From: Planctomycetota bacterium | GTDB taxonomy: Bacteria > Planctomycetota > Planctomycetia > Pirellulales > UBA7805 | Length of the DNA: 32,000 nt | Direction of reading: 5' to 3' | NCBI GenBank assembly: GCA_021413705.1 | Contig: JAIOPX010000146.1 | Coordinates: forward strand, 49,479-81,478 | Shown: positions 1 through 29,742 of the stretch, in pieces | Numbering within the stretch: position 1 is the first letter of the stretch | Layout of the letters: each line of letters begins with the position of its first letter | Position numbers and translations under genes: made by a program | The notes under the pieces: generated by a model | What the model was told of the DNA's origin: nothing | What the model saw: the letters and a program-made list of their open reading frames with translations, nothing else | The model's database searches: none

Positions 1-27
1 GCAAAGCCCGGCATCCTGGCAGCGATC

Positions 28-3000
28 ATGCGCCGAGAGTGCCCCGGGCTCGGCGCTACGGCCCGAGGCACGCACGACCGTCCCATGGGGCGGCTCATCG
101 GGCAGGCATTGGATCAAGCCGGCATTCGGCCGTCACTCCGCCATCAAAAGGTCGGCGATTACATCCTGGAACAACAAATTGGCGAAGGGCCAGGCTTCCA
201 GGACTGGCGTGGCACACATGCCCAGCTCCCCGAATCCAAGCGGCGGGTGCGTCTCTATCTAGTCCGCACTGGTGCCACGGCGCAAGAACGACAGACCCTG
301 GATCGAGCCGCCCGGCGAGAGTTTCAGTTGCTGGAAACCCTCCAGCATCCGGGCATTTTGCGGGCACTCAATTTCACGGGGCATGAACTCGGTCCGGCCC
401 TGTTCTTCGAGCACTATCCGTTAAGCATCCGGTTGGACCATTACCTCGCCCAACAGAAAGACAAACTGAGTGACGATCGACGCCTTGATCTTCTTCGCCA
501 AATTGCCGAGGTCGTTCGCTACGCCCACGACAAGAAAGTGGTCCATCGCGCTCTGTGCCCGCAGAGCATCCTGATTGCCGATCCTACCAGCGACAACCCG
601 CGGATCAAAATCTTCAACTGGCAGGCCGGCTATCGGGCCGGGGCCGGCTCATCCGGTGTGTCGCACATCATCAGCGCCACATCGCACGTGGACCGGCTGG
701 TTGAGGACGCCAGCACAGCCTACATGGCCCCCGAAGCGCTCTCCGACGGCGACAACACGGGTGAGCATCTGGACGTCTTCTCGCTGGGAGCCATCGCCTA
801 CCATATTTTCTCGGGCCAGCCCCCCGCGGCCAACGGCCTGGAGCTGAACAACAAGCTCCGCGAGACGAAGGGCTTGCAGATCAGCTCCGTCCTCAATGGC
901 GCCGGCACAGCCCTTCAGTATCTTGTCCAATACAGCTCTCATCCCGAAGTGCCCAACAGAATTGACTCCGTCGTCGAACTGCTGGGTTGCCTGGACGCCG
1001 TCGAAGAAGAATTGACGACACCTGAGCACGAGTATGTCGAAGATCCCCTCCTGGCCCAGATGGGCGACAAATTGCCGGGCGGTTTCCAAGTCGTCAAGCG
1101 AATCGGCCTAGGGGCCTGTTCCGTGGCGCTCTTGGTCGAGCGGGCCGGGCAGGATTTTGTCCTCAAGGTGGCCAGCGATCCCGAACATAATCAGCGCCTC
1201 AAAGACGAAGCCGAAGTGCTGACCAAGTTGCACCATACCAATCTGGTGCAATTAAGCGAGCTGCTGGAGATCGGCGACCGGACGGCTTTCGCCATGCGGC
1301 CCGTCTTCGTGGATAAAACGGCGCGGCGAATCGAGACCCTCCGCCAACGACTCCGCAGGGATGGTCACCTCCTGATAGACCTTCTGCAAAGATTCGGCGA
1401 GGATCTGCTGGACGCGGTCAACTACTTGGAAGACCAGGGCTTGCCGCACCGGGACATCAAGCCGGACAATATCGCCGTCGGCATGCTTGGCCGCGGAGAC
1501 CGGCTGCATCTGGTGCTGTTTGACTTTTCCCTCTCCCGCACACCGCCGGAAAACATCCGCGCAGGGACGACGCATTATCTCGACCCCCTGCTGCCACTCC
1601 GCACGCCCAAACCCCGTTGGGACCTGCACGCCGAGCGTTATGCCGCGGCTGTGACGTTATACGAGATGGCCACCGGGAAGACGCCGAAGTGGGGCGACGG
1701 TGTGACCGATCCCTCGCACCTGAATTGCGAAATCACAATCGACGCCGAAGTGTTCGATGCCAATCTGCGCGACGAGTTGACGGCTTTCTTCGCCAAGGCC
1801 CTCCGCCGCGACCCGGCGCAGCGGTTCGACAATGCCGAAGAGATGCTGCGGGCCTGGCGCAATTGCTTCGAGGGAATCGAGGAGCCGGGCTCCCTGTCGG
1901 ACCACGATGACGAAACCTTGTTGCCCGGCTTGTTGGCAGAGGCGACCGAAGACACGCCGATTTCGGAATTGGGGCTGGGGACACGGGCCACGAACGTACT
2001 CGACCGGGCCAACGTCCTGACGGTCGAGGACCTGCTCACCGTCCCCATGCGCCGGCTGTCCCGGCTCCGCGGAGTGGGAAACAAGACCCGCCGCGAGATC
2101 ATGGCTGCGGTCAAAATCCTCCGCGAACGCTTGGGCAAACCAACTGGCGCCAAGACGGCCATCACGGAGGAGCCGGAGCCCCAGCCCGCCGCCACCGACC
2201 TCAACACGCTGGGTGTTGATCAGCTGGCCCAGCGGGTTTTGCGAATCGGGGGACGTGAAGGAGACACCGCGAAAGACGCGATGCACGGGCTACTCGGGCT
2301 GGACCCCGAAGTGACGGATCCCTGGCCCAGCCAAGCGGACGTGGCTCGCCGCGTCAATGTCACCCGTGCCCGTGTGGGCCAGTTGCTCGGCAAGTTCCAG
2401 GATCGCGGGTCTAAAGACCCGGCCATTACCAAGGTCCGGGATCATCTTGCCGAAATTGTCACCGTGCAGGGTGGCGTGGTGTCGGCCGGCGAATTGATCG
2501 AGGCGCTCCTGGTGGAGCGGGGATGCGTCGAAGATGAGCCAAAGCGGACGCAACTCTCTGGCGCCGTGGTACGAGCCGCAGTCGAGGTCGAGCGGACGAT
2601 GACCGACCCGCGGTACCTCGTGCGCCGTGACGGCGACAGCGTGTTGATTGCCCAGAATCAAGTGCTGGCCGAATACGCCAGCGCTCTGGGGCAGGTTGCC
2701 GACGAGTTGGCCATCGAAGATCCGTTGGCTGCTCCGAATCGCGTTGCCCAGCGGCTGCGTGAGGTCGCAGCCCCCAGTGGTTCAGCGCTCTCCGATGCCC
2801 GCCTGGTCCGTTTGGCTGTTGCCGCCTCGCGCAACGCCGCACTCTCCAGTCGCCAGGAACTTTACCCGCGCGGCATGCCTGCCGGCCGGGTGCTGACCCT
2901 CTCGCAGGGGGCGCTGCTCGGTCCGAAGCAACTGACGGTCGAAGAGATTCGCGAACGGGTTAGCAGCCGTTACCCAGGCGCCGCGCCGCTGCCCGACAGG

Positions 3001-3738
3001 CCGGCGCTGGACGAACTGCTGCGGGACGCCGGCTTTGAGTTCCGTTGGGATCCGCTCGGCAAGAACGGCCAGGGTTGTTATGAGAGCCGGCTGAGAGACT
3101 CGATTTCGGTCACCAGCGGAAGCGAGTCCTTCCCTCGCTTGCCGACATCGCCGGGGAGCGCCGAGGTTGGCGAGGTCACACCTGAGGAGGCCGATGCGCG
3201 GCAATTTGAGGAGCGACTCCAGCGGGCGGTCAAGGAAGGAGCCTTCCTGACACTGATGGTCGATCCCAAGTATTACGAGCGGGCCATGAAGGAATTGTGC
3301 CGGCGGTTCGCCGTTGAACTGGTTGAGTTGGAGGGGCTGTTTCTCGACGCCCTGCACGCCGTGGCCAACGAAGCAAAAGTCGATTGGGAGCTGGTCGTCA
3401 GGACCGACGCCGCGCCCGGCAAAGGAGACTGGGACAAGCTAATGCTATTGGTGGGTCGTGCGATGACGATCGTCGAACAGAAGCTGTCAGCGGCGGAAAA
3501 GACGGCGCTTGTCGTATATGCCGGCGTCCTGGCCCGCTACGACCGGATGGATGTGCTAAGCCATCTGTCACAGAAGGTCGGTCGCCGGGATGGGATTCCT
3601 GGTTTGTGGCTGCTGTTGCCTGGCGATCACCAAGCACTGCTCGACGGCAAGGCTGTTCCGATCCTTGGCCCCGGTCAGCGGGCGCGTATTCCCGAAGGTT
3701 GGATAATGAATATTCATAGATCCAATGGCACGATGTAA
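28..3738 (+). CDS. pglW: PglW-like Ser/Thr protein kinase of type 2 BREX (Pgl): degenerate kinase domain, canonical kinase domain, helix-hairpin-helix, HTH and a long C-terminal region
   Basis: Uninterrupted 1236-aa ORF. The first kinase-like domain is degenerate: VVHRALCPQSIL replaces HRDxKxxN and IFNWQ replaces DFG, while YMAPE and DVFSLGAIAY are kept. The second domain is canonical: glycine loop IGLGACSVA, lysine in FVLKVA, HRDIKPDNIAV, DFS, ERYAAAVTLYEMATG. ISELGLGTRATNVLDRANVLTVEDLL...LRGVGNKTRREI resembles the RpoA alpha-CTD helix-hairpin-helix. SQADVARRVNVTRARVGQLL looks like an HTH. It sits first in a pglW-X-Y-Z-brxD-brxHI array. The start is uncertain (ATG 28, or ATG 85 giving MGRLIGQ), and the upstream region is cut by the window edge. 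Confidence 0.85.
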   Translation: MRRECPGLGATARGTHDRPMGRLIGQALDQAGIRPSLRHQKVGDYILEQQIGEGPGFQDWRGTHAQLPESKRRVRLYLVRTGATAQERQTLDRAARREFQLLETLQHPGILRALNFTGHELGPALFFEHYPLSIRLDHYLAQQKDKLSDDRRLDLLRQIAEVVRYAHDKKVVHRALCPQSILIADPTSDNPRIKIFNWQAGYRAGAGSSGVSHIISATSHVDRLVEDASTAYMAPEALSDGDNTGEHLDVFSLGAIAYHIFSGQPPAANGLELNNKLRETKGLQISSVLNGAGTALQYLVQYSSHPEVPNRIDSVVELLGCLDAVEEELTTPEHEYVEDPLLAQMGDKLPGGFQVVKRIGLGACSVALLVERAGQDFVLKVASDPEHNQRLKDEAEVLTKLHHTNLVQLSELLEIGDRTAFAMRPVFVDKTARRIETLRQRLRRDGHLLIDLLQRFGEDLLDAVNYLEDQGLPHRDIKPDNIAVGMLGRGDRLHLVLFDFSLSRTPPENIRAGTTHYLDPLLPLRTPKPRWDLHAERYAAAVTLYEMATGKTPKWGDGVTDPSHLNCEITIDAEVFDANLRDELTAFFAKALRRDPAQRFDNAEEMLRAWRNCFEGIEEPGSLSDHDDETLLPGLLAEATEDTPISELGLGTRATNVLDRANVLTVEDLLTVPMRRLSRLRGVGNKTRREIMAAVKILRERLGKPTGAKTAITEEPEPQPAATDLNTLGVDQLAQRVLRIGGREGDTAKDAMHGLLGLDPEVTDPWPSQADVARRVNVTRARVGQLLGKFQDRGSKDPAITKVRDHLAEIVTVQGGVVSAGELIEALLVERGCVEDEPKRTQLSGAVVRAAVEVERTMTDPRYLVRRDGDSVLIAQNQVLAEYASALGQVADELAIEDPLAAPNRVAQRLREVAAPSGSALSDARLVRLAVAASRNAALSSRQELYPRGMPAGRVLTLSQGALLGPKQLTVEEIRERVSSRYPGAAPLPDRPALDELLRDAGFEFRWDPLGKNGQGCYESRLRDSISVTSGSESFPRLPTSPGSAEVGEVTPEEADARQFEERLQRAVKEGAFLTLMVDPKYYERAMKELCRRFAVELVELEGLFLDALHAVANEAKVDWELVVRTDAAPGKGDWDKLMLLVGRAMTIVEQKLSAAEKTALVVYAGVLARYDRMDVLSHLSQKVGRRDGIPGLWLLLPGDHQALLDGKAVPILGPGQRARIPEGWIMNIHRSNGTM

Positions 3739-3750: not shown

Positions 3751-4587
3751 ATGGCTCGCAAAAAGAATACCGTGACGGACGCCGTTAAGAAACTCCACAA
3801 CTCGCTTGCCGTTGCGCATTTTGTTGCATTCTCACACGATGCGTCATCAAGCCGCGACATCAAACTAGCGGAAGGGATCATCAGTGTTGGAGGTGTCGGT
3901 GCGTTGATCTCAGGAGCTGCATTCAACGGTTATGACACGAATGAATCGGATCCTGCGAAAGTGCGCATCGTGACGTATGGCGTAAAGGCAGTCCTTCGCA
4001 AGGACATTCTTCGCTTGATCGACGAAGGCAACGCTGCTGTTCAGTCAGATTCGATTGCCACTGCCTATGAGGTGATGGAGACATTCATAAAAGACTTAGC
4101 TGGCAACTTCCTGTCTTATTCCGGCAAGCACATTCCGATCGACAAGCGATTCCAAGAAAAAGCAAAGAAGTCATTTGCAAAGAACACGCCCCCATATTTT
4201 AAGGAAGTTGCAAAGGCGATGGCACGCCAGAACTGTGATGGCCTTTACAAGCTGTTTTTTAAGCACGTTGATGGGCTTGAGGAACGTGTGCGCACGTATC
4301 ATCGGGGCGATCTACATGACTCTCACCGAGCTGTCGAGGCAATTCGTCATCTGAAGACTCATGAGTTTGGGCGTTATATTCCGGCCAAAATAAAAAAGTG
4401 TCCAACAGGCGCACAACACATTGTTAAAGCGTGTGTTCGCAACAGCATCATTCACAAAACAGACTGGATACTTCCAACATTTAAGCAGGCACAAGACTTC
4501 CTCATCCGAGAAGCTGAATACGGGCAAATACTGTATCAATCTGTCAGCGAAGAACTGGGAATGAAAATTGACTACTTGCCTGGGTAA
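3751..4587 (+). CDS. Hypothetical 278-aa protein inserted between pglW and pglX; possible HEPN-type (R-H-x3-H) effector
   Basis: Clean ORF starting 12 nt after the pglW stop and ending 23 nt before the pglX start, on the same strand. It is noticeably more A/T-rich than its neighbours: single 60-nt lines I counted gave about 48% G+C here and about 58% in late pglW, which is not a window-wide calculation. C-terminal segment HRAVEAIRHLKTHEFG contains RHLKTH, matching the HEPN Rx4-6H signature with a polar residue after the Arg. I recognise no other family. Confidence 0.7.
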   Translation: MARKKNTVTDAVKKLHNSLAVAHFVAFSHDASSSRDIKLAEGIISVGGVGALISGAAFNGYDTNESDPAKVRIVTYGVKAVLRKDILRLIDEGNAAVQSDSIATAYEVMETFIKDLAGNFLSYSGKHIPIDKRFQEKAKKSFAKNTPPYFKEVAKAMARQNCDGLYKLFFKHVDGLEERVRTYHRGDLHDSHRAVEAIRHLKTHEFGRYIPAKIKKCPTGAQHIVKACVRNSIIHKTDWILPTFKQAQDFLIREAEYGQILYQSVSEELGMKIDYLPG

Positions 4588-4610: not shown

Positions 4611-7600
4611 ATGATTGACCGAAAAGCATTACTAGCTGACCTCCAGGACTTGCTGCGGCAGTTGGAGGCGGACTTGCTGGAGCGCAGCGAGTCGGATGAG
4701 GTGCCGGAGGTGGGAGAGGCGCTGCGCGCAGAGTTTGCGCGGGCGCAGCAGGCGCAGCGGACGGCGCAGAACTTTGAGGACTGGCGCGCGGACGCCACCA
4801 CTCAGGCGGCGGCGGCGTGGGTACTATCGTGCGTGTTCGTGCGGTTCCTGGAAGACAACCGACTCGTCGAGCCGCCACGGATCGCCGGGCTGGGGGATCG
4901 GCTGGCGCGGGCACGCGATGAGCATGAGTTGTACTTCCGTAAACATCCTACTGAGACCGATCGACATTACCTGCTGGCTGCGTTCGATGAGTTGGCCAGA
5001 CTGCCTGGCGCGAAGGACATCTTTGGCGAGCACAATCCCTTTCGCGAGTTGCCCAATTGGCTCTCCGGCGATGCGGCTGGGGAGTTGCTGCGGTTCTTCC
5101 AGAAGATCGACGCCAACACGGGCGCGCTGGTCCACGATTTCACAGACCCGGATTGGGACACACGATTCCTGGGAGACTTGTACCAGGATCTGTCCGAAAC
5201 GACGCGCAAAAAGTACGCCCTGTTGCAGACGCCAGAGTTTGTCGAGGAGTTCATCCTCGATCGGACGCTTGATCCAGCAATCGAAGAGTTCGGGCTGGCC
5301 GGCTTTCGCATGATCGACCCGGCATGTGGCAGTGGACACTTTCTGCTCGGGAGTTTCCGTCGCATTCTGGATCGCTGGCAGAAGAAGGAGCCTGGCACAA
5401 AGGTCCGCGATCTGGTGCAAAAGGCGCTCGACAGCATTCACGGAGTGGATCTGAACCCGTACGCCGTGGTCATTGCCCGTTTCCGGCTGCTGCTGGCGGC
5501 AATGCGGGCCAGCAATATACGCACGCTGGCTGATGCACCGGCATTTCAACTCAACATTGTCTGTGGTGACTCGCTGTTGCACGGCGTTGGCGCCCAAGCA
5601 AGCCTCGGTTGGCACGAGTTCGATCATGTGTACCAGGCGGAGGACCACAAGGAGCTAGTCCAGGTTCTGAAGCCCAGCCACTACCATGCTGTGGTGGCCA
5701 ACCCGCCGTACATTACGCCGAAAGACAAGGCCATGAACGACGCCTACCGCGAGCGGTATTCAGCCTGTCACATGAAGTATTCGCTCTCGGTCCCATTCAT
5801 GCAGCGGCTGTTTCAGTTGACTGTCCGCGGAGACGGCAATGGGCAGGGGGCATCGGGTTACGTCGGCCAGATAACAGCCAATAGTTTCATGAAGCGTGAG
5901 TTCGGCAAGAAACTGATCGAGGAGTTCTTGCCCACGGTGGACCTGAGTCACGTCATCGACACGAGCGGGGCCTATATTCCCGGTCACGGAACGCCAACCG
6001 TTATCTTGTTTGGGCGAAATCGCCGTCCAATTAGCGGCACCCTCCGCACTGTCATGGGTATCCGTGGCGAACCGAGTACACCGAATGATCCAGCGCAAGG
6101 CGTGGTCTGGACTGCCATTACCGCCCAAGTGGACCAACCCGACTCACAAGGTTCGTTTGTCAGCGTCTGCGACTCGCTGAGAGACAACTTCCATAAGCAT
6201 CCGTGGTCTATTGGCGGAGGCGGTGCGGCGGAGTTGAAGGAGGAATTACATGCCGTGGCAACCAGCACTCTCGCAGCCCTAGTCGATTCGATCGGCCCGC
6301 CGAGTTTTGCAGGCGTGGATGACATGTTTTTCTCAACCGAGAATGCATTGCGCCGAGCCGGAGTTGAGCCGAACCTTATTCGTCAGCTTATCAGTGGCGA
6401 TGTTGTCCGCGATTGGGTCATTGCACGCGATATTGATTGCCTTGTTCCGTACGACAATAACCACAATCTGCTTGCCTTTGACGCCAGTGCTCCGTGGGGA
6501 CGTTATGTTTGGCTGACCAAAGCCTCATCAGAGGGGATGGTGTCATTCAACAAGCAAACACGAAGGGAACTGCGCGAACCTTGGTGGTCGTGGTATCGTT
6601 GGATTCCGGGACGATTCAAGACCCCGTATGCAATTGTTTTCGCCGAGGTGGCCACTCACAATCACTTCGCTCTGGATCGCGGGGGCAGAGTTTTCAAGCA
6701 GACGGCCCCTGTCATCAAGCTGCCCGCCGACGCAACCGAAGATGACCACCTGGCGCTACTAGGACTTCTGAACAGCTCCACAGCGTGCTTCTGGATGAAA
6801 CAAGTGTGCTTCCCCAAAGGGACAACAACTGGCGACATTAGCACGGAGAAAGGACGAGCGGAAGCAAATCGGTTTGCATTTAATTCGACGGCTCTCGAAA
6901 ACTTTCCGCTACCAAATTGGTCTGAAGCGTGTCGCCAGGAGGTTATCGCAACAGCACGTGCTATTACTTTTCGCGGTGAGCAGATTAACCAATTGCAATC
7001 ACAGCAGAGAATCGAGGAGCTACTTTCCAAAGTGGATCGGAAATTATTTCTCTCGCTGCTAGAACAAGACCGTAATGCCATTGAACGACTAAAGCGTGAA
7101 ATGGTTTTCCTCCAAGAGGAATTAGACTGGTCTGTTTACGAGGCTTATGGATTTGTTCACGGTACTATCAAGACGAATGTCAACGACGATGTGCAGCAGG
7201 CCACGAAGTCAGAGCGACCGTTCTGTGCTGATGCCGACATAGATGCGAGCATCGCACAGAGTGATGTGTGGAAATCACGACGTCAAATAATTGGAGCGGT
7301 TGACGCCATTCGGCTGATCGAGACACCGGTCTACAAGCGGCTATGGGCCGGACGCCAGGGCGTTTATGGCTTGGCGAGTAGGACAGTAGCTGAACAGCAG
7401 CGAGATCAATTGGAACAGTTGTTGCTGAGCCGATTGGAGAGCTATTTCGACTTTGATGGGCGGATGAACGAACCAAGTGGTCGGACTGCAAAATTAGGGA
7501 CGGAGCTGTCTTCTACTGCGCAGATTGCCGACATCGCGGACGGCGATTCGGACTTTCACAACCTCGGCGCTGCCCTGCAAGGCGACTTCGCCTTCGACCT

Positions 7601-8333
7601 GCCGCGGCTGGTTGCGGAACTGGTCGAATCCCAGAGTGTCCCCCTGCTGCCGATTCTCCGTTACAAGGCCAGCGGCTTGCGCAAGCGCGCCGAGTGGCAG
7701 CAGACCTGGGAATTGCAGCGTGAGGAAGATCAACTGCGCAGCCATCTCGCTGATTTGGAAGAGGAGGCCCACGCGAAGCGAGCGGAACACGACGGAGACT
7801 TGCCAAGAGACATTGAACGCATCCTTGCGTTAATCGGCAAAGATATTGCCGCTCAGAAACAGAAATGCCACGAGTTCGCGGCCGCGATACCTGTCCCGCC
7901 CAAGTACACAAGCGGTGACTTTCTCAAGAGCGACTATTGGCGCCTCCGCGGCAAACTCGACGTCCCCAAGGAACGCTGGGTCAGCTTTCCCCACTGCGAA
8001 GGCCCCGACGGCACGCTGGTCGTCGCTTGGGCCGGCTACGACCACCTGCAACTGGCCACGGCGGTCGGGCAGTACTATCAGCGCGTCAAGGACGAGTTCG
8101 GCGGCAGCGACGACCCTCGTTTGACCCCGCTCCTGGCCTGCCTGATCGAGCTGCTCCCCTGGCTCAAGCAGTGGCACAACGAAGTATCGGCCGAGTTCGG
8201 CGTCCCCATGGGCGAATACTTCGAGGGCTTCGTGCAGGAAGAAGCCCGCCAACTCGGCAAAACCCTACCGGAAATCCAATCCTGGCAGCCCCCCGCCCGC
8301 ACCAGCGGCCGCCGGCGGAGGGCCACAACATGA
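4611..8333 (+). CDS. pglX: PglX, BREX N6-adenine DNA methyltransferase
   Basis: 1240-aa ORF. SAM-binding motif I is FRMIDPACGSGHFLLGS and catalytic motif IV is VVANPPYITPKD (NPPY). Size, motif order and position after pglW fit PglX. Confidence 0.9.
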   Translation: MIDRKALLADLQDLLRQLEADLLERSESDEVPEVGEALRAEFARAQQAQRTAQNFEDWRADATTQAAAAWVLSCVFVRFLEDNRLVEPPRIAGLGDRLARARDEHELYFRKHPTETDRHYLLAAFDELARLPGAKDIFGEHNPFRELPNWLSGDAAGELLRFFQKIDANTGALVHDFTDPDWDTRFLGDLYQDLSETTRKKYALLQTPEFVEEFILDRTLDPAIEEFGLAGFRMIDPACGSGHFLLGSFRRILDRWQKKEPGTKVRDLVQKALDSIHGVDLNPYAVVIARFRLLLAAMRASNIRTLADAPAFQLNIVCGDSLLHGVGAQASLGWHEFDHVYQAEDHKELVQVLKPSHYHAVVANPPYITPKDKAMNDAYRERYSACHMKYSLSVPFMQRLFQLTVRGDGNGQGASGYVGQITANSFMKREFGKKLIEEFLPTVDLSHVIDTSGAYIPGHGTPTVILFGRNRRPISGTLRTVMGIRGEPSTPNDPAQGVVWTAITAQVDQPDSQGSFVSVCDSLRDNFHKHPWSIGGGGAAELKEELHAVATSTLAALVDSIGPPSFAGVDDMFFSTENALRRAGVEPNLIRQLISGDVVRDWVIARDIDCLVPYDNNHNLLAFDASAPWGRYVWLTKASSEGMVSFNKQTRRELREPWWSWYRWIPGRFKTPYAIVFAEVATHNHFALDRGGRVFKQTAPVIKLPADATEDDHLALLGLLNSSTACFWMKQVCFPKGTTTGDISTEKGRAEANRFAFNSTALENFPLPNWSEACRQEVIATARAITFRGEQINQLQSQQRIEELLSKVDRKLFLSLLEQDRNAIERLKREMVFLQEELDWSVYEAYGFVHGTIKTNVNDDVQQATKSERPFCADADIDASIAQSDVWKSRRQIIGAVDAIRLIETPVYKRLWAGRQGVYGLASRTVAEQQRDQLEQLLLSRLESYFDFDGRMNEPSGRTAKLGTELSSTAQIADIADGDSDFHNLGAALQGDFAFDLPRLVAELVESQSVPLLPILRYKASGLRKRAEWQQTWELQREEDQLRSHLADLEEEAHAKRAEHDGDLPRDIERILALIGKDIAAQKQKCHEFAAAIPVPPKYTSGDFLKSDYWRLRGKLDVPKERWVSFPHCEGPDGTLVVAWAGYDHLQLATAVGQYYQRVKDEFGGSDDPRLTPLLACLIELLPWLKQWHNEVSAEFGVPMGEYFEGFVQEEARQLGKTLPEIQSWQPPARTSGRRRRATT

Positions 8334-9109
8334 GGCATCCATACGTGGGTGATGTGGGTGATTTTGGCAAGTATGGATTACTTCGCGCGCTGCATCAAGA
8401 AAATGGATCACAGCGGCTTGGCGTAGTGTGGTATCTCACAGATGCTGAAGAGCATAACAAAGATGGCAAGCATGACGGCTATCTCACCACTGCGTCTGAA
8501 AAGCGCCGCGCCATTTACCGAGACTGCGACCCGGAGCTTTACGACGTTTTAAGGGCGGTACGTAAGCACCGTCAGCTCAATATCGAAATGATGGAAAACG
8601 GAAACGTTCTTCACCAATCCACGGCATTCTTCGGAACATCTTTACCGGTATTCAGGGGGAGGGTCCGCGAACAACGCGAATACAAAACTCGGTGGGAGCA
8701 ACGTGAGAAATGGCATAGCGCTGCGGTCCACTCAATGAAAAACTCGGCATGTGTTTTTACCGACCCAGATAACGGCATTCTCTTCGCCTCACGGGATTCA
8801 GTGGAACGCAGGAAGCCCTCGCATAAGCACGCCTATTGGCATGAAATTGCAGGGTATCTCTCACTGGGTATGAGTGTAGTGGCCTATCACCATCTGGGAC
8901 GACAGCGCGGAGGTCATTCCGCGTTGATCAAGGAATGCCTGAGAAAAATCGGCTATCTGGGGTTCGATGCCTGGGCGGTGCATTATCGACGTGGGACGGG
9001 GCGGGCCTTTGTGGTGATACCTGAGAAAAGCAGCGCTAAACAACTTCTTAATGGCACACGTCAATTCGTCGCGGTCTGGAAGGAGCATGCGGGCCTTGTC
9101 ACGCTTTAA
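8330..9109 (+). CDS. Hypothetical 259-aa protein translationally coupled to pglX; possible RlmJ-like Rossmann-fold protein with divergent motif IV (DPDN)
   Basis: The ATG at 8330 overlaps the pglX TGA (ATGA, 8330-8333). The track ORF 7937-9109 carries an Arg/Pro-rich N-terminal extension that lies inside pglX in another frame, so I discount that extension. N-terminus YVGDVGDFGKYGLLRAL lines up with my recollection of E. coli RlmJ HAGNHADVLKHxxL (G, N/D, D, K, H/Y, L). ACVFTDPDNGI lines up with RlmJ LIDPPYE. VVAYHHLGR and GRAFVVIPEK sit where RlmJ has YALWYPV and MIVINPPW. This alignment is by eye only. Confidence 0.7.
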   Translation: MRHPYVGDVGDFGKYGLLRALHQENGSQRLGVVWYLTDAEEHNKDGKHDGYLTTASEKRRAIYRDCDPELYDVLRAVRKHRQLNIEMMENGNVLHQSTAFFGTSLPVFRGRVREQREYKTRWEQREKWHSAAVHSMKNSACVFTDPDNGILFASRDSVERRKPSHKHAYWHEIAGYLSLGMSVVAYHHLGRQRGGHSALIKECLRKIGYLGFDAWAVHYRRGTGRAFVVIPEKSSAKQLLNGTRQFVAVWKEHAGLVTL

Positions 9110-9194
9110 TGTCGAGTATGTCTTTCGCGAATTCCCGTTGCGAGTGAAACTGAACGCGAGATGAAATCGCCTTGCCCGACACAATTTTGGAAGT

Positions 9195-9200
9195 AAGGAG
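9195..9200 (+). promoter_or_regulatory. Shine-Dalgarno (AAGGAG) for the 171-aa ORF
   Basis: AAGGAG lies 7 nt upstream of the ATG at 9208. The track's upstream start at 9172 is a TTG with no ribosome-binding site. Confidence 0.5.
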
Positions 9201-9207
9201 TACGAAA

Positions 9208-9723
9208 ATGCCAGAAATGCCATCACTATCAACTCCATCCGAGAAGAGCTTGGTCGATTTTGCTATTCTGGCACCCGTGCCTGAAGAACACCTGCTTGAC
9301 GGTGAGCCGGTAGCGGACGCTGAAGGGTTTGTCGCCTTCGGCTCCCGAAAATGGGAACTCTTTCGCGCGGTGGACAAACTACGCGAGGGCGATCCTGTCC
9401 CTGTACTCATCTACCCGTCTCACGAGCATGAGGCCGGCAAACTGACATTCAAGATCATGTGGAGCGGGTGGTATATCGGGAGCGTGGAGAGCCATGATGG
9501 ATCTCACCCTGCCGGCATGAAGCATCGCCCGCCATCGACCGAGCAATATGCACAGGACAACCTGGGGCTGTGGGCCGTCTTCTGGCACGTCGCAGGACTT
9601 AAACCTCTGCCGGAGGCAGAACATCGGCTCATTTCGTCGCTGCGAAGTTACAAAACAGGCCACTGGCGAGTGGGACAAGCGCCGAAGGGGCCGGAAATCG
9701 TGGCCAGACCTAGTTGGATCTGA
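9208..9723 (+). CDS. Hypothetical 171-aa protein (no recognisable family), immediately upstream of the GmrSD-like gene
   Basis: ORF with a good ribosome-binding site and ATG, on the same strand and packed between two other cargo genes (98-nt and 68-nt spacers). The sequence (…LIYPSHEHEAGKLTFKIMWSGWYIGSVE…FWHVAGLKPLPEAEHRLISSL…) has a mixed, globular-looking residue composition. I recognise no motif. Confidence 0.6.
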   Translation: MPEMPSLSTPSEKSLVDFAILAPVPEEHLLDGEPVADAEGFVAFGSRKWELFRAVDKLREGDPVPVLIYPSHEHEAGKLTFKIMWSGWYIGSVESHDGSHPAGMKHRPPSTEQYAQDNLGLWAVFWHVAGLKPLPEAEHRLISSLRSYKTGHWRVGQAPKGPEIVARPSWI

Positions 9724-9791
9724 AACGAAAGTGCGGCGACATAAGATTACGCCTTTTCAATTTTTGACCCGGTACCTGCCATGAGCCACAC

Positions 9792-11480
9792 ATGAAGAAC
9801 CAAAAACAGACCATACGCAAGATCGTCGGATTTCTGAACAACCCTGACGAAGACGGCGGCTTTTGGCTGCCCAACATCCAGCGTCCCTTTGTGTGGACGG
9901 AAGAGCAGATTTGCCGGCTGTTTGACTCGATTCTGCGTGAGTATCCGATCAGCACGCTGTTGGTTTGGAAAACAACGAGCAAGATTCGGCGGCGGAAGTT
10001 CATCGACAACTGGAAGCATTCACTTCGCCTCAGCGATTTCTACGCCACGGAGGATGAGCAAAAGAAGTGCTTGGTGCTTGATGGTCAGCAGCGTCTGCAA
10101 AGCCTTTTCATCGGCCTTAAGGGCAGTTTTGAGGGACGCGAATTGCATTTGGACATACTTAGCGGGGACGTTGCGGCTCCAGACGACATCAAGTACCGAT
10201 TCAAGTTCCTGGAGGCCGCCAAGGCAAAGTTCCCCTGGATTCGCTTTCGCGATCTGATGTTTACAACGAAAAAGCAGCGGCAGCTCAGCGCCGAGATCGG
10301 GGAGAATGCCGGCCGCGAGTTGGGCGAAGAAGAAGCAGACAAGATTGGTGACCACCTGAACTTGATAGACCGCACATTCAAGATGGATGAAGCCGTCGTC
10401 TACCAGGAACTCGACAGCATTGATAATCCCAAGCTCTACACCGAAGACGATGTTGTGGAAATCTTTATCCGTGCCAATTCTGGCGGCACGATTCTCGGTA
10501 AATCCGACCTCCTGTTCTCATTGCTCAGTGTGAAGTGGAACTTTGCAAACGAAAAGATGGAAGAATTGCTGGAGTCGCTAAACAGGCATGGGTTCGCATT
10601 CGACCGCGATTTCGTTCTCAAGACATGCCTCGTTGTATTTGGACAGGGAGCTCGCTACGAGGTCGATAAGTTCCGCAAGGCGGGGGTGCGAGAGGACATC
10701 GAGGGGAACTGGGACCGCGTTTCTGAATCAATCCAAGACGTGCTGGACTACCTGCGCGAAAAAACATTCATTCGATGTGATCGCGCAATTCCTTCCTACT
10801 TGGTCCTAATACCTCTCGTCTACCTGCGGTATCACTACAAAGAGGCTTGGCGAGCGGCACAGAAAGTGGATGACTATGTCGTGCGCTGTCTCCTGACCGG
10901 AGCATTCGGTGGCCAGCCGGACAATCTTATCGACGCCCTCACGAAGACGATTGCTGAATCAAGTCATTTCGACGTCAAAGCGGCCTTTGCTGCCATACGT
11001 TCCCAACAACGCTCTTTGGAGCTTACAGAGGACCGATTCTGGCAAATGGGATATGGCTCAAAGACTATCCATCTGCTTTTCAATCTTTGGTACCGTGACT
11101 TCAATCAGACACCCGCCTATGACAATAACATGCCACAGATTGATCATATATTTCCGCAGAGCGCCCTTAAGAAATTGAAGGTGATAAATCCCGAAACGGG
11201 GCGGTCGGTGATGAAATACACCAGCGACGTTCGCGATCAGCTTGCAAACTGCATGCTGCTCAGCCGCGAAGAGAACGGCTCCGGCGGAAAGTGGGCCACT
11301 CTGCCCAAGGAATGGTTTTCCAGCAAAGATTCGGACTACCTCCGTAAGCACTTGATTCCTGCGGACCCTAAATTGTGGGAAATGGATCAATTCGAGGAGT
11401 TCATTGAGGAACGAAAAAAGTTGATTGCTGACCGTTTTAAGTGGCTGTTGGCGACCTCTGCTGTTACGAGTCCCGATTGA
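9792..11480 (+). CDS. GmrSD/BrxU-like type IV (modification-dependent) restriction endonuclease, DUF262 + DUF1524
   Basis: The N-terminal DUF262/ParB-like signature is WLPNIQRPFVWTEEQICRLFDSILREYPISTLLVW, plus the LVLDGQQRLQSLF (DGQQR) motif. The C-terminal DUF1524 His-Me finger signature is IDHIFPQS … LANCMLLSREENGSGGK. 562 aa. Confidence 0.85.
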   Translation: MKNQKQTIRKIVGFLNNPDEDGGFWLPNIQRPFVWTEEQICRLFDSILREYPISTLLVWKTTSKIRRRKFIDNWKHSLRLSDFYATEDEQKKCLVLDGQQRLQSLFIGLKGSFEGRELHLDILSGDVAAPDDIKYRFKFLEAAKAKFPWIRFRDLMFTTKKQRQLSAEIGENAGRELGEEEADKIGDHLNLIDRTFKMDEAVVYQELDSIDNPKLYTEDDVVEIFIRANSGGTILGKSDLLFSLLSVKWNFANEKMEELLESLNRHGFAFDRDFVLKTCLVVFGQGARYEVDKFRKAGVREDIEGNWDRVSESIQDVLDYLREKTFIRCDRAIPSYLVLIPLVYLRYHYKEAWRAAQKVDDYVVRCLLTGAFGGQPDNLIDALTKTIAESSHFDVKAAFAAIRSQQRSLELTEDRFWQMGYGSKTIHLLFNLWYRDFNQTPAYDNNMPQIDHIFPQSALKKLKVINPETGRSVMKYTSDVRDQLANCMLLSREENGSGGKWATLPKEWFSSKDSDYLRKHLIPADPKLWEMDQFEEFIEERKKLIADRFKWLLATSAVTSPD

Positions 11481-11509
11481 ATACGAAGTAGGCGGATTGA
11501 GCACGAGCT

Positions 11510-14500
11510 ATGACCCTCATAAAAGACCTCATTGAAATCCCTGACCACGTTCAGAAGGGGGACTTCGTCCTCCACTTGGCGGAGGACATTGGCCGGCCTG
11601 AAGTGGTCTTGAAAAACTACGTGGTTACGCCCGAACTGAAGGTGTGCTACGACGACGCGTTGGCGTTTGTCCGCAGCGCTGTCCAAGGAAACACCAGCAA
11701 GGCCGCGTACCTGCACGGTAGTTTCGGCAGCGGCAAAAGCCATTTCATGGCCGTGCTGCACCTGATTCTGCAAGGCAATGCCGCCGCCCGCGGCATTCCC
11801 GAGCTGGCGCCCGTCATCCAGAAGCACAATGACTGGATTGCCGGCAAGAAGTTCCTGCTCGTGCCGTACCACATGATCGGCGCCCACGACATGGAGTCGG
11901 GCATCCTGGGGGGCTATGTCGAGTACATTCGCCGTGTGCATCCCGAGGCGCCCATTCCCGGCGTCTATCTGGCCGAGGGGCTGTTTCGCGATGCCCAGTC
12001 GTTGCGGGCGACGCTGGGTGACGCAAAGTTCTTTGAGAAACTCAACGAAGGGGGTGGCAGCGGCGGTGGCTGGGGGGCACTTGCGGCCAATTGGGACGCC
12101 GCCCGATTCGATACCGCGGTCGAGGCACCTCCGGGCGCGGAGGAGCGGTCGCAGCTCATCAGCACTCTGATAGCCAAGTTCTTTGGCTCCTACGACACGC
12201 AGGCTGGCGGCAGGGGTGAAGCGTTCATTTCTCTCGACAAAGGACTGTCTGTCATCAGTCAACACGCGGCCAGCCTGGGGTATCACGCGCTCATTCTGTT
12301 CCTGGACGAGCTGGTCCTGTGGCTGGCCAGCCATGCCGCCGATCTGAAGTTCGTTCATCAGGAAGGGCAGAAGCTGGCCAAGCTGGTCGAGGCCCAGACG
12401 CCTGACCGTCCGGTGCCCGTGGTGAGCTTCGTGGCCCGACAGCGGGATTTGCGGGAGCTGATCGGCGATGCCGTGCCGGGTGCAGATCGACTGAACTTTG
12501 GCGATGCGTTGAAACATTGGGAGGGGCGGTTCCACAAGATTACGCTAGAGGATCGGAATCTGCCGCTGATCGCAGAAAAGCGGGTCTTGAAGTGCAAGAG
12601 TGAATCCGCGCGCCAGGAACTCGATGCGGCCTTCGAGCAGACTATCAAGATGCGCGACTCGGCCATGAACGTGTTGCTGACGGCCGAGGGAGACCGGCAG
12701 ATGTTCCGCCGCGTCTACCCGTTCAGTCCAGCGCTCGTGCAGACTCTGATCGCAGTCTCCAGCGTCTTGCAGCGGGAACGGACGGCGCTGAAGGTCATGA
12801 TGCAATTGCTCGTTGAGCAGCGGGAAACGCTCAAGGTAGGAGACATTGTCCCGATCGGCGACCTGTTCGACACGATCGCCCACGGTGACGAAGCATTCAG
12901 CCAGGAGATGGCCCTCCACTTCGACAACGCCAAGCGGCTGTATCACCAGAAGCTGCTGCCGCTGCTGGAACGGCAGCACGGGATCCGCCGTGAAGACGTC
13001 GAACAGCTTCCTTACGAGGATCCGAAGCGAATTGCCTTCCGCAATGACGACCGGCTCATCAAGACGTTGCTCTTAGGCGCCCTCGTGCCCGAAGTGGAAT
13101 CGCTCCGCTCCCTCAACGCCGAACGGCTGGCAGCGCTGAATCACGGCACGATCCGCACCCCGATCGCCGGCCGAGAGGGGCAAGAAGTATTGCGCCGTTG
13201 CCGGGCTTGGGCTGCCAGCGTGGGCGAGATCCGCATCGGTGAAGAGACCAACCCGACCATTTCGGTTCAACTTTCGGGCGTCGATACCGAAGGGATCATT
13301 GCCCAGGCCAGCCGCGAAGACAATCAGGGAAACCGGATTCGTCGGGTGCGACAGATCCTGTTCGAGCAGGTGGGGATCGAGGGTGAAGGCGAGTTTGAGC
13401 AGTACCACGAGTTTCTGTGGCGAAATACCAAGCGAAGTTGTGTTGTGCTGTTCAAGAACATCCGTGAGTTGCCAGACGCTTCACTGGAGAGCAATGAAGA
13501 CGCCTGGAAGCTGATCATCGACTTTCCCTTTGACGAGCCGGGGCACGGCCCCATGGACGACCTCAGCCGGTTACAGAAGTTCCGGCAGACCCAACCCCAA
13601 GGAGCCAAGACAGTCTGCTGGGTGCCTGCGTTTCTCAGCAATGAGGCGCAGAAGGATTTGGGGATGCTCGTCATCCTGGAGCACATTTTGTCGGGCGAGC
13701 GATTCACCCAGTATTCCAACCATCTCTCACCCCAGGACCGGCAGTCGGCCAAGTCGGTGCTGGAAAATCAGCGGAGCGTGTTGCGGGAGCGGGTCAAAAG
13801 CCACCTGGACGCGGCCTACGGCCTGGAGGCCATCACGCCGGGGGCACTCGACACGACGCACGAGTTGGAACTGGCTGAGCGATACGTTTCGTTGTTTTCG
13901 GGGTTTGATCCGCAACCACCGGTGGCCGCCAATCTGGGTCAGGCGATGCAGCACCTGATTGGTCAGGCACTGATCCACGAGTTTCCGGCAGCGCCAAACT
14001 TTGAGACGGAGATCAAGTCGGGGAATCTCAAAAAGGTTTATGAACAGGTCGCGCTGGCCACCCAAGCGCCCGATGGCCGAGTCGAAGTGGACAAGACCTT
14101 ACGTCCTCTGTTGCGGCAGATCGCGAATCCGTTGCTCGTGGGGGAGATGCGACTGGACGCCACCCATTTTGTGCTGGGGCGGCACTGGCGAAGCCATTTT
14201 GGTCGCAAGGCTGCCGAGACGGGTAGCCCGATGACGGTTGAAAACCTTCGCAAGTGGATTGACGATCCGCGGCCCATGGGATTGCCGAAGGAGGCCCAAA
14301 ACCTGGTGCTGCTCGTCTTCGCGGCCCAGACGAACCGGACATTTTATCTGCACGGCGTTCACTACGACGAGCCGACGCTGGCTAACATTCCCGATAAGTG
14401 TGAGCTACGCGAACAGAAGCTGCCGGACGCAGGAACGTGGGAGAAGGCCGTCCAGCGGGCCGGTAGCATTTTTGGAGTGGCCGTCTCCCGACTGCTCAAC

Positions 14501-15208
14501 GCCAGCAATGTCGGCCTCCTCTCCGCCGGTGTCAAGGCGAAGGCGGGCGAAGTACGCCGGCCGTGCCAGAGATACGTCCAGCGCCTGCGCGAGCGTCTGA
14601 CACGGATCGGGGTGGTGCCGGAAGAGGCCGACCGGATGTTGACCGCTTCGACGACCCAGGGGCTTGTCGAGCGCATTTGCGGCGACGAGGCGATTGATTT
14701 GGTGAACCTGCTGGCCACCGCTAACGTGGCAACCAGCGAGGCGGCTATGGGGGAGTGCGTCGGTAAGGCGGCCGAGTTGGAAGGGAATCTGGACACGGGC
14801 GGCTGGGAGATTTTCGAGGCCGTGGGGGCACTGACGGACGATCGTCAAGCAGAGGCCAGGGAGGTGGTTGTCGCGGTGCGCGACGCACTGCGAAGCGACG
14901 AGCACGTCATGCAGCTCGCGCCAGCACTGCGAGGCGCCCAGGCCAAGGCAGTGCGGTTACTCTCTAAGCCGACGCAAGCTCAGCCGCCGACTGGTCCAGC
15001 ACCGGTTGTGCCTCCCGCCGGTCCAACCATAGTGGCTCCCGTCGTCCCGGACAACACGCGCAAAATCGTAAGCCAGGGAGCGGAACAGGGTTTAGAGTTG
15101 CCGGCTGCCAAGGAATTGCTCGCCAAACTGGATCGGGATAAGCGCGCTGGGCAGGCCGTGCGCGTCAATCTCAGTTGGATCATTGAAGAAGGGGGCAAGT
15201 CAACGTGA
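11510..15208 (+). CDS. pglY: PglY (BrxC/PglY family) large P-loop ATPase of BREX
   Basis: 1232-aa ORF. Walker A is LHGSFGSGKSHF near the N-terminus and a Walker B-like motif is LILFLDELVLWL. Size and position between pglX and pglZ fit PglY. Its stop overlaps the pglZ start. Confidence 0.85.
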   Translation: MTLIKDLIEIPDHVQKGDFVLHLAEDIGRPEVVLKNYVVTPELKVCYDDALAFVRSAVQGNTSKAAYLHGSFGSGKSHFMAVLHLILQGNAAARGIPELAPVIQKHNDWIAGKKFLLVPYHMIGAHDMESGILGGYVEYIRRVHPEAPIPGVYLAEGLFRDAQSLRATLGDAKFFEKLNEGGGSGGGWGALAANWDAARFDTAVEAPPGAEERSQLISTLIAKFFGSYDTQAGGRGEAFISLDKGLSVISQHAASLGYHALILFLDELVLWLASHAADLKFVHQEGQKLAKLVEAQTPDRPVPVVSFVARQRDLRELIGDAVPGADRLNFGDALKHWEGRFHKITLEDRNLPLIAEKRVLKCKSESARQELDAAFEQTIKMRDSAMNVLLTAEGDRQMFRRVYPFSPALVQTLIAVSSVLQRERTALKVMMQLLVEQRETLKVGDIVPIGDLFDTIAHGDEAFSQEMALHFDNAKRLYHQKLLPLLERQHGIRREDVEQLPYEDPKRIAFRNDDRLIKTLLLGALVPEVESLRSLNAERLAALNHGTIRTPIAGREGQEVLRRCRAWAASVGEIRIGEETNPTISVQLSGVDTEGIIAQASREDNQGNRIRRVRQILFEQVGIEGEGEFEQYHEFLWRNTKRSCVVLFKNIRELPDASLESNEDAWKLIIDFPFDEPGHGPMDDLSRLQKFRQTQPQGAKTVCWVPAFLSNEAQKDLGMLVILEHILSGERFTQYSNHLSPQDRQSAKSVLENQRSVLRERVKSHLDAAYGLEAITPGALDTTHELELAERYVSLFSGFDPQPPVAANLGQAMQHLIGQALIHEFPAAPNFETEIKSGNLKKVYEQVALATQAPDGRVEVDKTLRPLLRQIANPLLVGEMRLDATHFVLGRHWRSHFGRKAAETGSPMTVENLRKWIDDPRPMGLPKEAQNLVLLVFAAQTNRTFYLHGVHYDEPTLANIPDKCELREQKLPDAGTWEKAVQRAGSIFGVAVSRLLNASNVGLLSAGVKAKAGEVRRPCQRYVQRLRERLTRIGVVPEEADRMLTASTTQGLVERICGDEAIDLVNLLATANVATSEAAMGECVGKAAELEGNLDTGGWEIFEAVGALTDDRQAEAREVVVAVRDALRSDEHVMQLAPALRGAQAKAVRLLSKPTQAQPPTGPAPVVPPAGPTIVAPVVPDNTRKIVSQGAEQGLELPAAKELLAKLDRDKRAGQAVRVNLSWIIEEGGKST

Positions 15209-17886: not shown

Positions 17887-17894
17887 GTCGCACC

Positions 17895-23369: not shown

Positions 23370-23374
23370 CTTGC

Positions 23375-24307: not shown

Positions 24308-24736
24308 TTCCTATCGTCGTTAACGTAAAATCCATCTACCTATTGGGACCAGAGCCGACGCCCTGCATGCACCATCGCAGCGCAATCAGGGTGTTATCAT
24401 ATCAAAAGTGGTTCGGTGCGAATACCGCAGACAGGCCGTACCCGTCAGATTATCCGCTCAAGCAGGCTGAGATCCTAACCCAACACGGCTGCCCGACGGA
24501 CGTTGTCTGCCCATTAAGGCGAACGTGGAATACCTCACGGACTGGCAACTACGCGGTGTGATCACCGCGTCCGAGCATGCGCCGATAGTCCCGCGAATAT
24601 CCATTCGGACTACCTCTTTGTGAGGTTAACCTGTCGATTGAAAATGAAAAGGCAGGACTGTTTCGGATGTATAAATATTCAGCGGAAAGAGTGGGGCGAG
24701 CTGTGATCCAGAAAATAAACCCGGCGGCAGAACATC

Positions 24737-26142: not shown

Positions 26143-26147
26143 AGGAG
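26143..26147 (+). promoter_or_regulatory. Shine-Dalgarno (AGGAG) for the DUF5131 gene
   Basis: AGGAG lies 7 nt upstream of the ATG at 26155. Confidence 0.5.
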
Positions 26148-26154
26148 AAGCGTA

Positions 26155-29721: not shown

Positions 29722-29742
29722 ACCGCGTTGGAATCAGATCGT

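Follow-up and report, generated by a model that had tools for sequence, protein, structure and literature searches.

A methyltransferase-like protein with a changed, invariant active site is encoded directly behind pglX in a planctomycete type 2 BREX operon

What does a gene do that starts on the stop codon of pglX, the DNA methyltransferase gene of a type 2 bacteriophage exclusion (BREX) operon, and whose product resembles an adenine methyltransferase with a changed catalytic motif? The question is raised by a 32,000-nucleotide stretch of a Planctomycetota genome (order Pirellulales; assembly GCA_021413705.1, contig JAIOPX010000146.1, positions 49,479 to 81,478), which we call the window and in whose numbering all coordinates are given. 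Its first 21 kb are a single co-directional type 2 BREX (phage growth limitation, Pgl) operon, entirely on the + strand, and all six of the BREX type 2 genes (PglW, PglX, PglY, PglZ, BrxD, and BrxHI) lie between positions 1 and 21331. The gene in question, here called T (8330 to 9109, + strand), encodes a basic protein of 259 amino acids (isoelectric point 9.7) with an RlmJ-like Rossmann fold, as judged from its AlphaFold2 model and Foldseek. Our preferred, still tentative reading is that T is an autonomous adenine-directed enzyme, not a methyltransferase, that was recruited as a partner of PglX. T probably does something other than methylate adenine.

The open reading frame (ORF) of T translates without a stop, and the product is 100% identical to “hypothetical protein K8T91_10970”. 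A preliminary description of this DNA had reported that T begins within the pglX stop as ATGA, and the sequence confirms this: the ATG (8330 to 8332) overlaps the TGA (8331 to 8333), giving a start/stop overlap at 8330 to 8333. A Shine-Dalgarno sequence, GGAGGG (8317 to 8322), lies 7 nucleotides before the start, and the coupling signals together span 8317 to 8333 on the + strand. No convincing promoter or terminator was found at the pglX/T and T/downstream junctions. A longer, TTG-initiated ORF (7937 to 9109) was rejected as the gene because the homologues all begin at the MRH/MQN position. Both motifs quoted in the preliminary description are present, residues 5–21 reading YVGDVGDFGKYGLLRAL and residues 143–149 reading FTDPDNG. 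Its suggestion that T might be a paralogue of PglX did not hold, as the two proteins show no similarity when compared, and for the same reason the idea that T is a degenerate copy of the methyltransferase domain of PglX was rejected. The catalytic motifs of PglX itself, DPACGSGHF (motif I) and NPPY (residues 364–367), are intact, so T is no substitute for a lost catalytic center.

The preliminary description had likened T to RlmJ, the 23S rRNA m6A2030 methyltransferase, citing HAGNHADVLKH near the RlmJ N-terminus and a catalytic DPPY. Both are correct, as RlmJ of Escherichia coli MG1655 begins MLSYRHSFHAGNHADVLKH and contains LILIDPPYE. The likeness proved to be one of fold, supported by structure searches but not at a significant level by sequence profiles. 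The AlphaFold2 model of T has a predicted local distance difference test score (pLDDT) of 90.6 and a predicted template modeling score (pTM) of 0.90. Among 350,542 PDB chains searched with Foldseek, the sole match below 1e-3 was RlmJ (6qe5_A; E=9.8e-5, probability 1.0, template modeling [TM] score 0.45), with generic class I methyltransferases next in rank and T4 Dam among the weaker matches. For the model of a sister subfamily introduced below (pLDDT 91.5), ranks 1–14 in the PDB were all RlmJ-family chains, namely E. coli RlmJ in all liganded states and Legionella LPL1258 (E 4.7e-7 to 7.3e-6, TM up to 0.52), and the first other fold was CbiT at E=9e-4. Identity to RlmJ in the structural alignments is ~9–12% for both models. 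Helices at residues 50–90 of T, between strands at 30–34 and 99–101, form a helical subdomain after strand 1 of the RlmJ type. A search of the viral folds in BFVD with T returned nothing below 1e-3.

By contrast, the comparison with PF04378/RlmJ profiles that the preliminary description had proposed detected no relationship. PF04378 matched none of 40 T-family members even at E<=10, and RlmJ was not reported when a hidden Markov model (HMM) of the T family was run with filters off against RlmJ and 2,000 shuffled sequences. A PDB sequence search with the T-family profile likewise returned no RlmJ, its matches (a serpin and a TetR protein) being due to chance. With hhalign, T aligned to a single RlmJ sequence in the DPxx region only (E=0.83). 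Against an RlmJ profile of 136 sequences, aligned from 150 diverse representatives, the T family paired residues 139–192 with RlmJ 158–202, from motif IV through strand 5, at E=0.03, a match that is suggestive only. The sister subfamily aligned colinearly with this profile over 215 columns (E=0.017), pairing motif X, motif IV, strand 5, and the last strand. A forced global hhalign of T against the RlmJ profile was meaningless and was discarded. In an ungapped profile scan, T 5–19 scored best of ~265 offsets at RlmJ residue 9 (z ~4.8), and T 139–150 scored best of ~265 offsets at RlmJ 158 (158–169; z ~4.4). We regard T as very probably a remote, fold-level homologue of RlmJ that lies outside PF04378. 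A HAD-like DxD phosphotransferase, an idea prompted by the pattern hhhDPDNG, was rejected as a fold, all structural neighbors being methyltransferases; the two Asp residues of DPDN may nevertheless serve a metal or a phosphate.

The RlmJ structures allow the active site of T to be read residue by residue. In DNA N6-adenine methyltransferases of the Dam, M.TaqI, and Eco57I types and in RlmJ, a motif X residue and the Asp or Asn of motif IV hold the flipped adenine (PMC3814359). In RlmJ, these are K18 and D164, two essential residues that touch N6/N1 of the target adenine; the target base is also stacked by W195, and Y4 and H6 of the N-terminal tail are needed for methyl transfer (PMC3814359). 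The donor, S-adenosylmethionine (SAM), is held by H42 (motif I), E118/L119 (motif II), D143/G144/F145 (motif III), S100, and H19 (PMC3814359).

On the side of the target base, T has counterparts. The profile scan identified residues 5–19, YVGDVGDFGKYGLLR (8342 to 8386, + strand), as the motif X equivalent, with D11 at D15 and K14 at K18 of RlmJ, a pairing repeated when hhalign set the sister subfamily against RlmJ. The motif IV equivalent, D145-P-D-N-G149 (8762 to 8776, + strand), fell opposite D164-P-P-Y in the profile scan and in hhalign, which sets VFVDPDNG against VLIDPsYE on the RlmJ side. DPDN therefore sits where RlmJ has DPPY, as had been proposed, with D145 paired with D164. At the C-terminal end of strand beta5, Y186-H187-H188 (8885 to 8893, + strand) corresponds in hhalign to the motif VI region of RlmJ, W195-Y196-P197 (SlViYHH matched with vy-lWYP), and Y186 falls within one position of W195/Y196.

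The elements that serve the methyl donor are different. The tetrad (D/N/S)-P-P-(Y/F/W) is absent from T, the Pro-Tyr of DPPY being replaced by Asp147 (100% conserved) and Asn148 (99%). Strand 1 is followed by a glycine-free W34-Y35-L-x-P/D-D-E and not by a Gly-rich motif I loop, and an acid (E/D) occupies the motif II position in 58% of the family, T itself having Gly there. In DSSP assignments of the T and sister models, one long helix (115–135) and no strand lies between beta2 and the motif IV strand, and this helix, which replaces the motif III strand, bears the invariant R125 and W128. Since T begins 4 residues later than RlmJ, at RlmJ position 5, Y4 has no counterpart, and in the register that pairs K14 with K18, H6 aligns with a variable R/Q. 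Judged from the alignments and the models, T would keep the half of the site that holds the target adenine (K14, D11, D145, and an aromatic residue where strand 5 ends). The methyl-donor half would be replaced by an invariant polar cluster of D8, D45, D147-N148, K166, R125/W128, H188, and R221/R225.

These replacements are not the erosion of a single gene. T has homologues in at least 1,388 protein clusters (E<=1e-3), nearly all of 250–290 amino acids, and none of these clusters carries a Pfam domain or an informative name. T itself gave nothing significant against Pfam, NCBIfam, PADLOC, and PHROG models. Its sole PADLOC match, AbiEii, was insignificant (E=0.0099), no Pfam domain appeared at E<=0.01, and the methyltransferase HMMs of Pfam, NCBIfam, and PADLOC were silent even at E<=10. 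In an alignment of 177 family sequences, to which all conservation figures refer, D11, K14, W34, G46, R125, W128, D145, and D147 are 100% conserved, and D8, G10, G13, D45, C66, K166, Y186, H188, R221, R225, and W250 are conserved at >=98%. P146, N148, and G149 of DPDNG each reach 99%, as does Y186, and H188 reaches 98%, with H or Q at position 187. The preliminary description had made its proposal depend on the conservation of DPDN and the N-terminal motif, and both are conserved in the homologues. Across bacteria and archaea, ~20 polar or aromatic residues are conserved at >=98%, and the same DPDN recurs in the sister, plasmid, and phage-borne subfamilies. The family is basic, with a median isoelectric point of 9.1.

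Matches in genomes come mostly from Dehalococcoidia and Chloroflexota but also from Planctomycetota, Acidobacteriota, Proteobacteria, and Omnitrophota, and from archaea such as Methanoperedens and Hydrothermarchaeales. A search of plasmids with T gave three distant matches and no others, among them an Ensifer homologue (tblastn E=9e-6). The Ensifer-like protein represents a sister subfamily of 538 clusters, whose homology to the T family is beyond doubt (hhalign probability 100%, E=2.7e-41). Its N-terminus, YAGDVSDVLKFAFL, is closer still to the HAGNxADVLKHxVL of RlmJ than that of T is, ITF takes the place of YHH, and identity across Alphaproteobacteria is ~70%. With 1,388 and 538 clusters, the family numbers at least 1,900 clusters in all; it has no domain model and is found in bacteria, archaea, plasmids, and prophages. 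On the Ensifer adhaerens plasmid pCTYH.Ch1_3 (locus L090 of our survey, 7014 to 9319), the T relative lies between two genes annotated as GIY-YIG nucleases; the Pfam GIY-YIG match of the upstream gene is weak and sub-threshold, and the downstream gene has weak helix-turn-helix matches. Further loci of the sister subfamily were examined (L094–L096), and the Parvibaculum copy is a solo chromosomal gene amid housekeeping genes.

Within BREX, the position of T is fixed. The order PglX-T-(variable insert)-PglY was found in five BREX-2 loci (the window, L003, L082/L083, L084/L085, and L091), all related and apparently of a planctomycete type, L003 being a Pirellulaceae metagenome-assembled genome. 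T overlaps the PglX stop by 4 nucleotides in 3 of the 5 (the window, L084, and L091), and in L082 a gap of 16 nucleotides separates them. The interval between T and PglY varies, holding u170 and a GmrSD gene in the window and an AAA_15 ATPase with an HNH gene in L084, and being empty in L003, L082, and L091, whereas PglX and T are not separated by an insert in any of the five. The T/pglY interval acts as an insertion hot spot (window 9110 to 11509; L084 4745 to 6744). T and PglX are also the fastest-evolving members, with identities across these loci of 50–59% and 40–57%, compared with 67–72% for PglY, 59–69% for PglW, and 75–85% for BrxD. This constant place behind PglX, the frequent coupling, and the parallel divergence together argue that T is a recruited partner and not a passenger like GmrSD. 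A metagenome scan for T returned one locus, a duplicate of L086.

The family as a whole, however, is not specific to BREX. Among 80 species-representative genome loci with T, only 1 lies in BREX, and most hold T as a solo gene. A PurA-like gene occurs within ~4 kb of T in 18, and 14 of these 18 also have a dCTP-deaminase-like gene and 9 a P-loop nucleotide kinase gene; DUF7002 genes accompany T in 6 loci. The nearest non-BREX relatives, 47% identical to the BREX-linked T, are the last gene of a cassette of PurA-like protein, AAA ATPase (~710 amino acids), and T (L001, L002, L086/L097, L092, and L093), in which the PurA-like gene lies ~3.3 kb upstream of T. In L093, the cassette adjoins an integrase gene and an excisionase-like HTH_17 gene. 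The PurA-like protein of this cassette has ~350 amino acids and a P-loop of the form GxQxG[S/G]EGKGK, with Ser/Gly where PurA has its catalytic Asp. We found this cassette neither in PADLOC nor in the literature.

More distant relatives, at ~35% identity, stand in a second arrangement, in which a PurA-like gene is followed by a dCTP-deaminase-like gene with a C-terminal membrane (DUF4231-like) segment, by T, and sometimes by a P-loop kinase gene. T frequently overlaps the preceding gene by 4 nucleotides in the PurA-like/dCTP-deaminase-like cassettes. Loci of this second set are L012, L017, L028, L032, L038, L040, L042, L046, L050, and L061, and further ones are L004, L029, L031, L049, L053, and L062. 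In one variant of the cassette, a kinase::PurA fusion is accompanied by a DUF7002 protein that looks, by eye only, like a DarT-type ADP-ribosyltransferase at its N-terminus. The kinase domain fused to PurA weakly resembles that of a defensive dCTP deaminase. None of the PurA-like, dCTP-deaminase-like, kinase, and DUF7002 partners is in PADLOC. Among the proteins of the window, we found no homologue of the PurA-like, dCTP-deaminase-like, ~710-residue AAA, or kinase proteins, and a hidden PurA-like partner inside the window was rejected for this reason.

Other copies of T have DNA enzymes as neighbors or no evident partner at all. An N6_N4 DNA methylase gene overlaps the start of T in L072, and UvrD- or AddA-like helicase genes lie immediately upstream of T in L018, L071, and L080, the last also with an HNH nuclease gene downstream. 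Solo copies amid housekeeping genes are common. In eight Dehalococcoidia genomes (L008, L015, L016, L033, L041, L060, L064, and L074), T lies just upstream of miaA, and in 7 of the 8, tpiA lies just upstream of T, both genes being read by eye; miaA encodes the tRNA adenine-N6 isopentenyltransferase and tpiA triose-phosphate isomerase. This arrangement may be plain vertical synteny. Eleven related prophage-like contigs from IMG/VR (L098–L108) carry a T relative that is ~30% identical and keeps the GDxGDxxK, WY, DPDN, and YQH motifs. Its gene lies between those of the portal protein (phrog_533) and the large terminase but on the opposite strand, which is a classic moron position. A search of INPHARED phages with T gave no match.

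Taken together, these observations lead us to the reading given at the outset, which falls somewhat short of an even chance. T would belong to a sister family of RlmJ with the same Rossmann-type fold and a helical subdomain inserted after strand 1, and it would bind adenine or N6-substituted adenine in nucleic acid. Its chemistry would be other than SAM-dependent methylation, with base excision, transfer of a non-methyl group, and a hydrolysis that removes or converts the N6 group as candidates. In this operon it is made together with PglX, from one transcript and through ATGA coupling, and it would work on or beside the adenine targeted by PglX, adding an accessory layer to a BREX-2 subtype of planctomycete type. 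The wide range of contexts, the occurrence as a solo gene and as a moron, and the ~20 invariant residues speak for an enzyme that needs no partner and against a scaffold reserved for PglX, and T may well be enzymatic and not purely a binding protein. The residues expected to contact adenine, the basic charge, the DNA-enzyme neighbors, and partners that make N6-modified adenine point to a purine ligand, most simply adenine or N6-substituted adenine. Those partners are PglX and the N6 methylases (N6-methyladenine [m6A]), the PurA-like protein (N6-succinyl-adenylate), and MiaA (N6-isopentenyladenine), and their common product type could be coincidence.

Several points weigh against this reading. 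No sequence-profile method links T significantly to RlmJ, the TM scores are modest (0.45–0.52), and residue equivalences beyond motifs X and IV are uncertain, being good to about one position. That the invariant residues line a single pocket, and that SAM is unable to bind, is inferred from motif positions and secondary structure. The Ensifer-like sister subfamily lacks the Y186-H187-H188 triplet, and since H187/H188 are not kept there, the proposed catalytic cluster is partly clade-specific. As the five BREX loci are all related, the adjacency of PglX and T may go back to a single inherited event. The GC content at third codon positions (GC3) of T is 0.54, near that of the accessory gene u278 (0.50) and below that of the BREX core genes (0.70–0.75), a value as much in keeping with an inserted passenger as with a partner. 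Finally, because the strongest recurrent partners outside BREX are enzymes of nucleotide metabolism, a free-nucleotide substrate fits at least as well as DNA.

This last point leads to the first of three alternatives, namely that the substrate of T is a free nucleotide and that T, like GmrSD, is embedded in the operon as an independent effector, its adjacency to PglX being positional only. Acting, for instance, as a nucleosidase, as a deaminase, or on N6-modified AMP, it would bind a nucleotide of adenine or of a 6-substituted purine and degrade or convert it, in a defense that works on the nucleotide pool. In favor of this are the PurA-like genes near T, with the deaminase-like and nucleotide kinase genes beside them, and the closest relatives of the BREX-linked T, which stand in the PurA-like/AAA/T cassettes, one of them next to an integrase gene. 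The likeness of the PurA-fused kinase domain to that of a defensive dCTP deaminase, the solo and prophage-moron copies that need no dedicated partner, and a GC3 below the BREX core are in keeping with it as well. Yet T stands directly after PglX and before the insert in all five BREX loci, usually with start/stop coupling, and the window offers none of the cassette partners. The nearest fold relative, RlmJ, acts on a base in a polynucleotide, the family is basic, and other neighbors of T are DNA enzymes. We consider this explanation unlikely, if the most serious of the three.

Somewhat less likely again is a non-catalytic reader or regulatory subunit akin to METTL14, whose degenerate methyltransferase pocket would bind adenine, m6A, or PglX, and which would tune where and when PglX methylates or report the methylation state to BREX. 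Such a role would account for the loss of the catalytic tetrad and the SAM motifs alongside kept contacts to the target base, for translational coupling that suggests 1:1 synthesis with PglX, and for the similar rates at which T and PglX diverge, and an intact PglX makes a second catalytic center unnecessary. It accords poorly with a gene that is solo in most genomes, a moron in prophages, and a ~70%-conserved solo gene across Alphaproteobacteria, and the invariance of D8, D11, D45, D145, D147, K14, K166, R125, and R225 across phyla is more typical of catalysis. The remaining alternative, a SAM-dependent methyltransferase with an unorthodox motif IV that places a second mark beside m6A or modifies RNA or protein, is improbable: all significant structural neighbors are SAM-dependent methyltransferases, the motif X Lys and motif IV Asp are kept, and the phage and plasmid copies recall orphan methylases, but the second Pro and the aromatic of (D/N/S)PP(Y/F/W) have become an invariant Asp-Asn, equivalents of the Gly-rich motif I, motif II acid, motif III strand, and Y4/H6 are missing, and no methyltransferase HMM scores at any threshold tried.

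Returning to an adenine-directed partner of PglX, the boldest form of this reading is that T both reads and chemically processes adenine at N6, for example by hydrolytic de-alkylation or deamination, or through excision of the (methyl)adenine targeted by PglX. In this form, the proposal is a long shot. If it were true, T would translate the presence or absence of the Pgl/BREX-2 mark into an effect on the DNA. PurA-like enzymes build N6-succinyl-adenine from 6-oxopurines, and T with the PurA-like protein would then be the core of unrecognized purine-N6-centered defense cassettes that are also borne by prophages. T is a testable candidate for a missing step in the way BREX, especially the Pgl/type 2 form, converts an m6A mark on one strand into phage exclusion, whether by reading, erasing, or further processing the target adenine.

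Comparison with known systems places T at some distance from each of them. Its best structural match is RlmJ (PF04378; PDB 4BLU/4BLW/6QE5, and 2OO3 for Legionella LPL1258). The two are of similar size (259 vs 280 amino acids), their N-termini open directly with motif X, strands 1 and 2 are separated by a helical subdomain in both, and the Asp and Lys of motif X and the first Asp of motif IV match in colinear order. Unlike RlmJ, T has no PF04378 match, no DPPY, no DTHAGAG motif I, no E118-type acid, no D143-G144-F145 strand, and no Y4/H6, and its context is defense, mobile, or solo and not ribosome biogenesis. T probably works like RlmJ solely in how it holds the base. With N6-adenine methyltransferases of the Dam, M.TaqI, and Eco57I types, PglX included, T has the class I Rossmann fold in common, but it lacks their target-recognition domain and their (D/N)PP(Y/F/W), and it has no sequence relation to PglX.

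Catalytically dead methyltransferase-like partners are known from METTL14, beside METTL3, and from Dnmt3L. Like these, T has a methyltransferase fold with a degenerate motif IV and is co-produced with an active methyltransferase. METTL14 and Dnmt3L, however, are paralogues of the active enzyme and occur only alongside it, whereas T is unrelated to PglX, occurs mostly without any methyltransferase, and has substituted residues that are invariant and not decayed. As cited in a 2026 survey of BREX domains, BrxU is a GmrSD-type nuclease embedded in type 1 BREX (PMC12839542). T shares with such accessories a non-core status, a lower GC3 within a BREX operon, and an occurrence in other contexts, but it belongs to no nuclease family, and it keeps a fixed PglX-coupled site in all five loci while nuclease modules vary downstream.

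The preliminary description knew of no BREX component like T, and within the sources consulted this holds. T matches none of the PADLOC models of known BREX genes (BrxA/B/C/D/E/F/HI/HII/L/P and PglW/X/XI/Y/Z), and the main text of the 2026 survey mentions no RlmJ and no additional or inactive methyltransferase-like component (PMC12839542). The term “RlmJ-like” has zero occurrences in 8 million full texts, and our literature searches found no description of T and nothing relevant on BREX with RlmJ or on adenylosuccinate synthetase with defense. New, then, are a methyltransferase-derived fold with a new invariant active site, an accessory of a BREX-2 subtype, and a shared element of unlisted PurA-like cassettes, of which the two recurrent kinds are in none of the defense catalogues searched. 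Should T turn out to be mundane, an odd RNA-modifying enzyme hitch-hiking in the operon, its family would still merit a name and a model.

The remaining genes of the operon, all on the + strand, give T its setting. The first, pglW (1 to 3738), encodes the Ser/Thr kinase component (PADLOC PglW E=0; Pfam Pkinase and RNA_pol_A_CTD). It has no in-frame stop in positions 1 to 27, and its PADLOC alignment begins at profile position 177; with the frame open to the 5′ edge, the N-terminal part of PglW lies outside the window. This missing part probably includes the NERD nuclease, as PglW of L082 has 1421 amino acids and carries a NERD nuclease domain. Between pglW and pglX lies u278 (3751 to 4587; 278 amino acids), which matches none of Pfam, NCBIfam, and PADLOC and has the lowest GC content of the operon (0.48). 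L082 has a homologue with 37% identity at the corresponding place, L003 has none, and u278 is a second undescribed accessory gene of the same BREX-2 subtype. The N6-adenine DNA methyltransferase gene pglX itself (4611 to 8333) is identified by PADLOC PglX (E=0) and by Pfam Eco57I, MmeI_Mtase, N6_Mtase, and DUF7008. The GC content of its interior (6300 to 7500) drops to 0.50–0.55, compared with ~0.60 at the gene ends, a dip that would fit an exchanged target-recognition region.

Downstream of T follow u170 (9208 to 9723; 171 amino acids), which has its own AAGGAG ribosome-binding site and gave nothing significant in Pfam and PADLOC, and the gene for a GmrSD-type (DUF262 plus DUF1524/HNH) type IV restriction nuclease (9792 to 11480; Pfam GmrSD_N and GmrSD_C; PADLOC HEC-05 E=1.8e-105). 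The operon continues with the pglY/brxC ATPase gene (11510 to 15208; PADLOC BrxC-PglY E=0) and pglZ (15205 to 17886). The Pfam PglZ match of the latter (E=3e-4, 21.3 bits) lies under the 25-bit gathering threshold, and its product is 53–65% identical to those of PglZ genes in related BREX loci. It ends with the brxD ATPase gene (17883 to 19214; Pfam BrxC_BrxD E=1.5e-143) and brxHI, which encodes an Lhr-like helicase (19211 to 21331; Pfam DEAD, Helicase_C, and WH_Lhr).

Beyond the operon, the 3′ part of the window (21499 to 31335) holds further genes. A DUF5131 (Gp37/Gp68-like) gene lies at 26113 to 27069, and T as TcmP, the partner of this gene, was rejected, as there is no NCBIfam match; a TcmP-type partner for it was likewise not detected. 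The other genes of this region are an ORF of 245 amino acids that weakly matches the sce7726 family, a second Ser/Thr kinase gene (23375 to 24307, minus strand), a 582-amino-acid nitroreductase-family gene (27973 to 29721, minus strand), and a gene for a DinB-type DNA polymerase IV (30112 to 31335).

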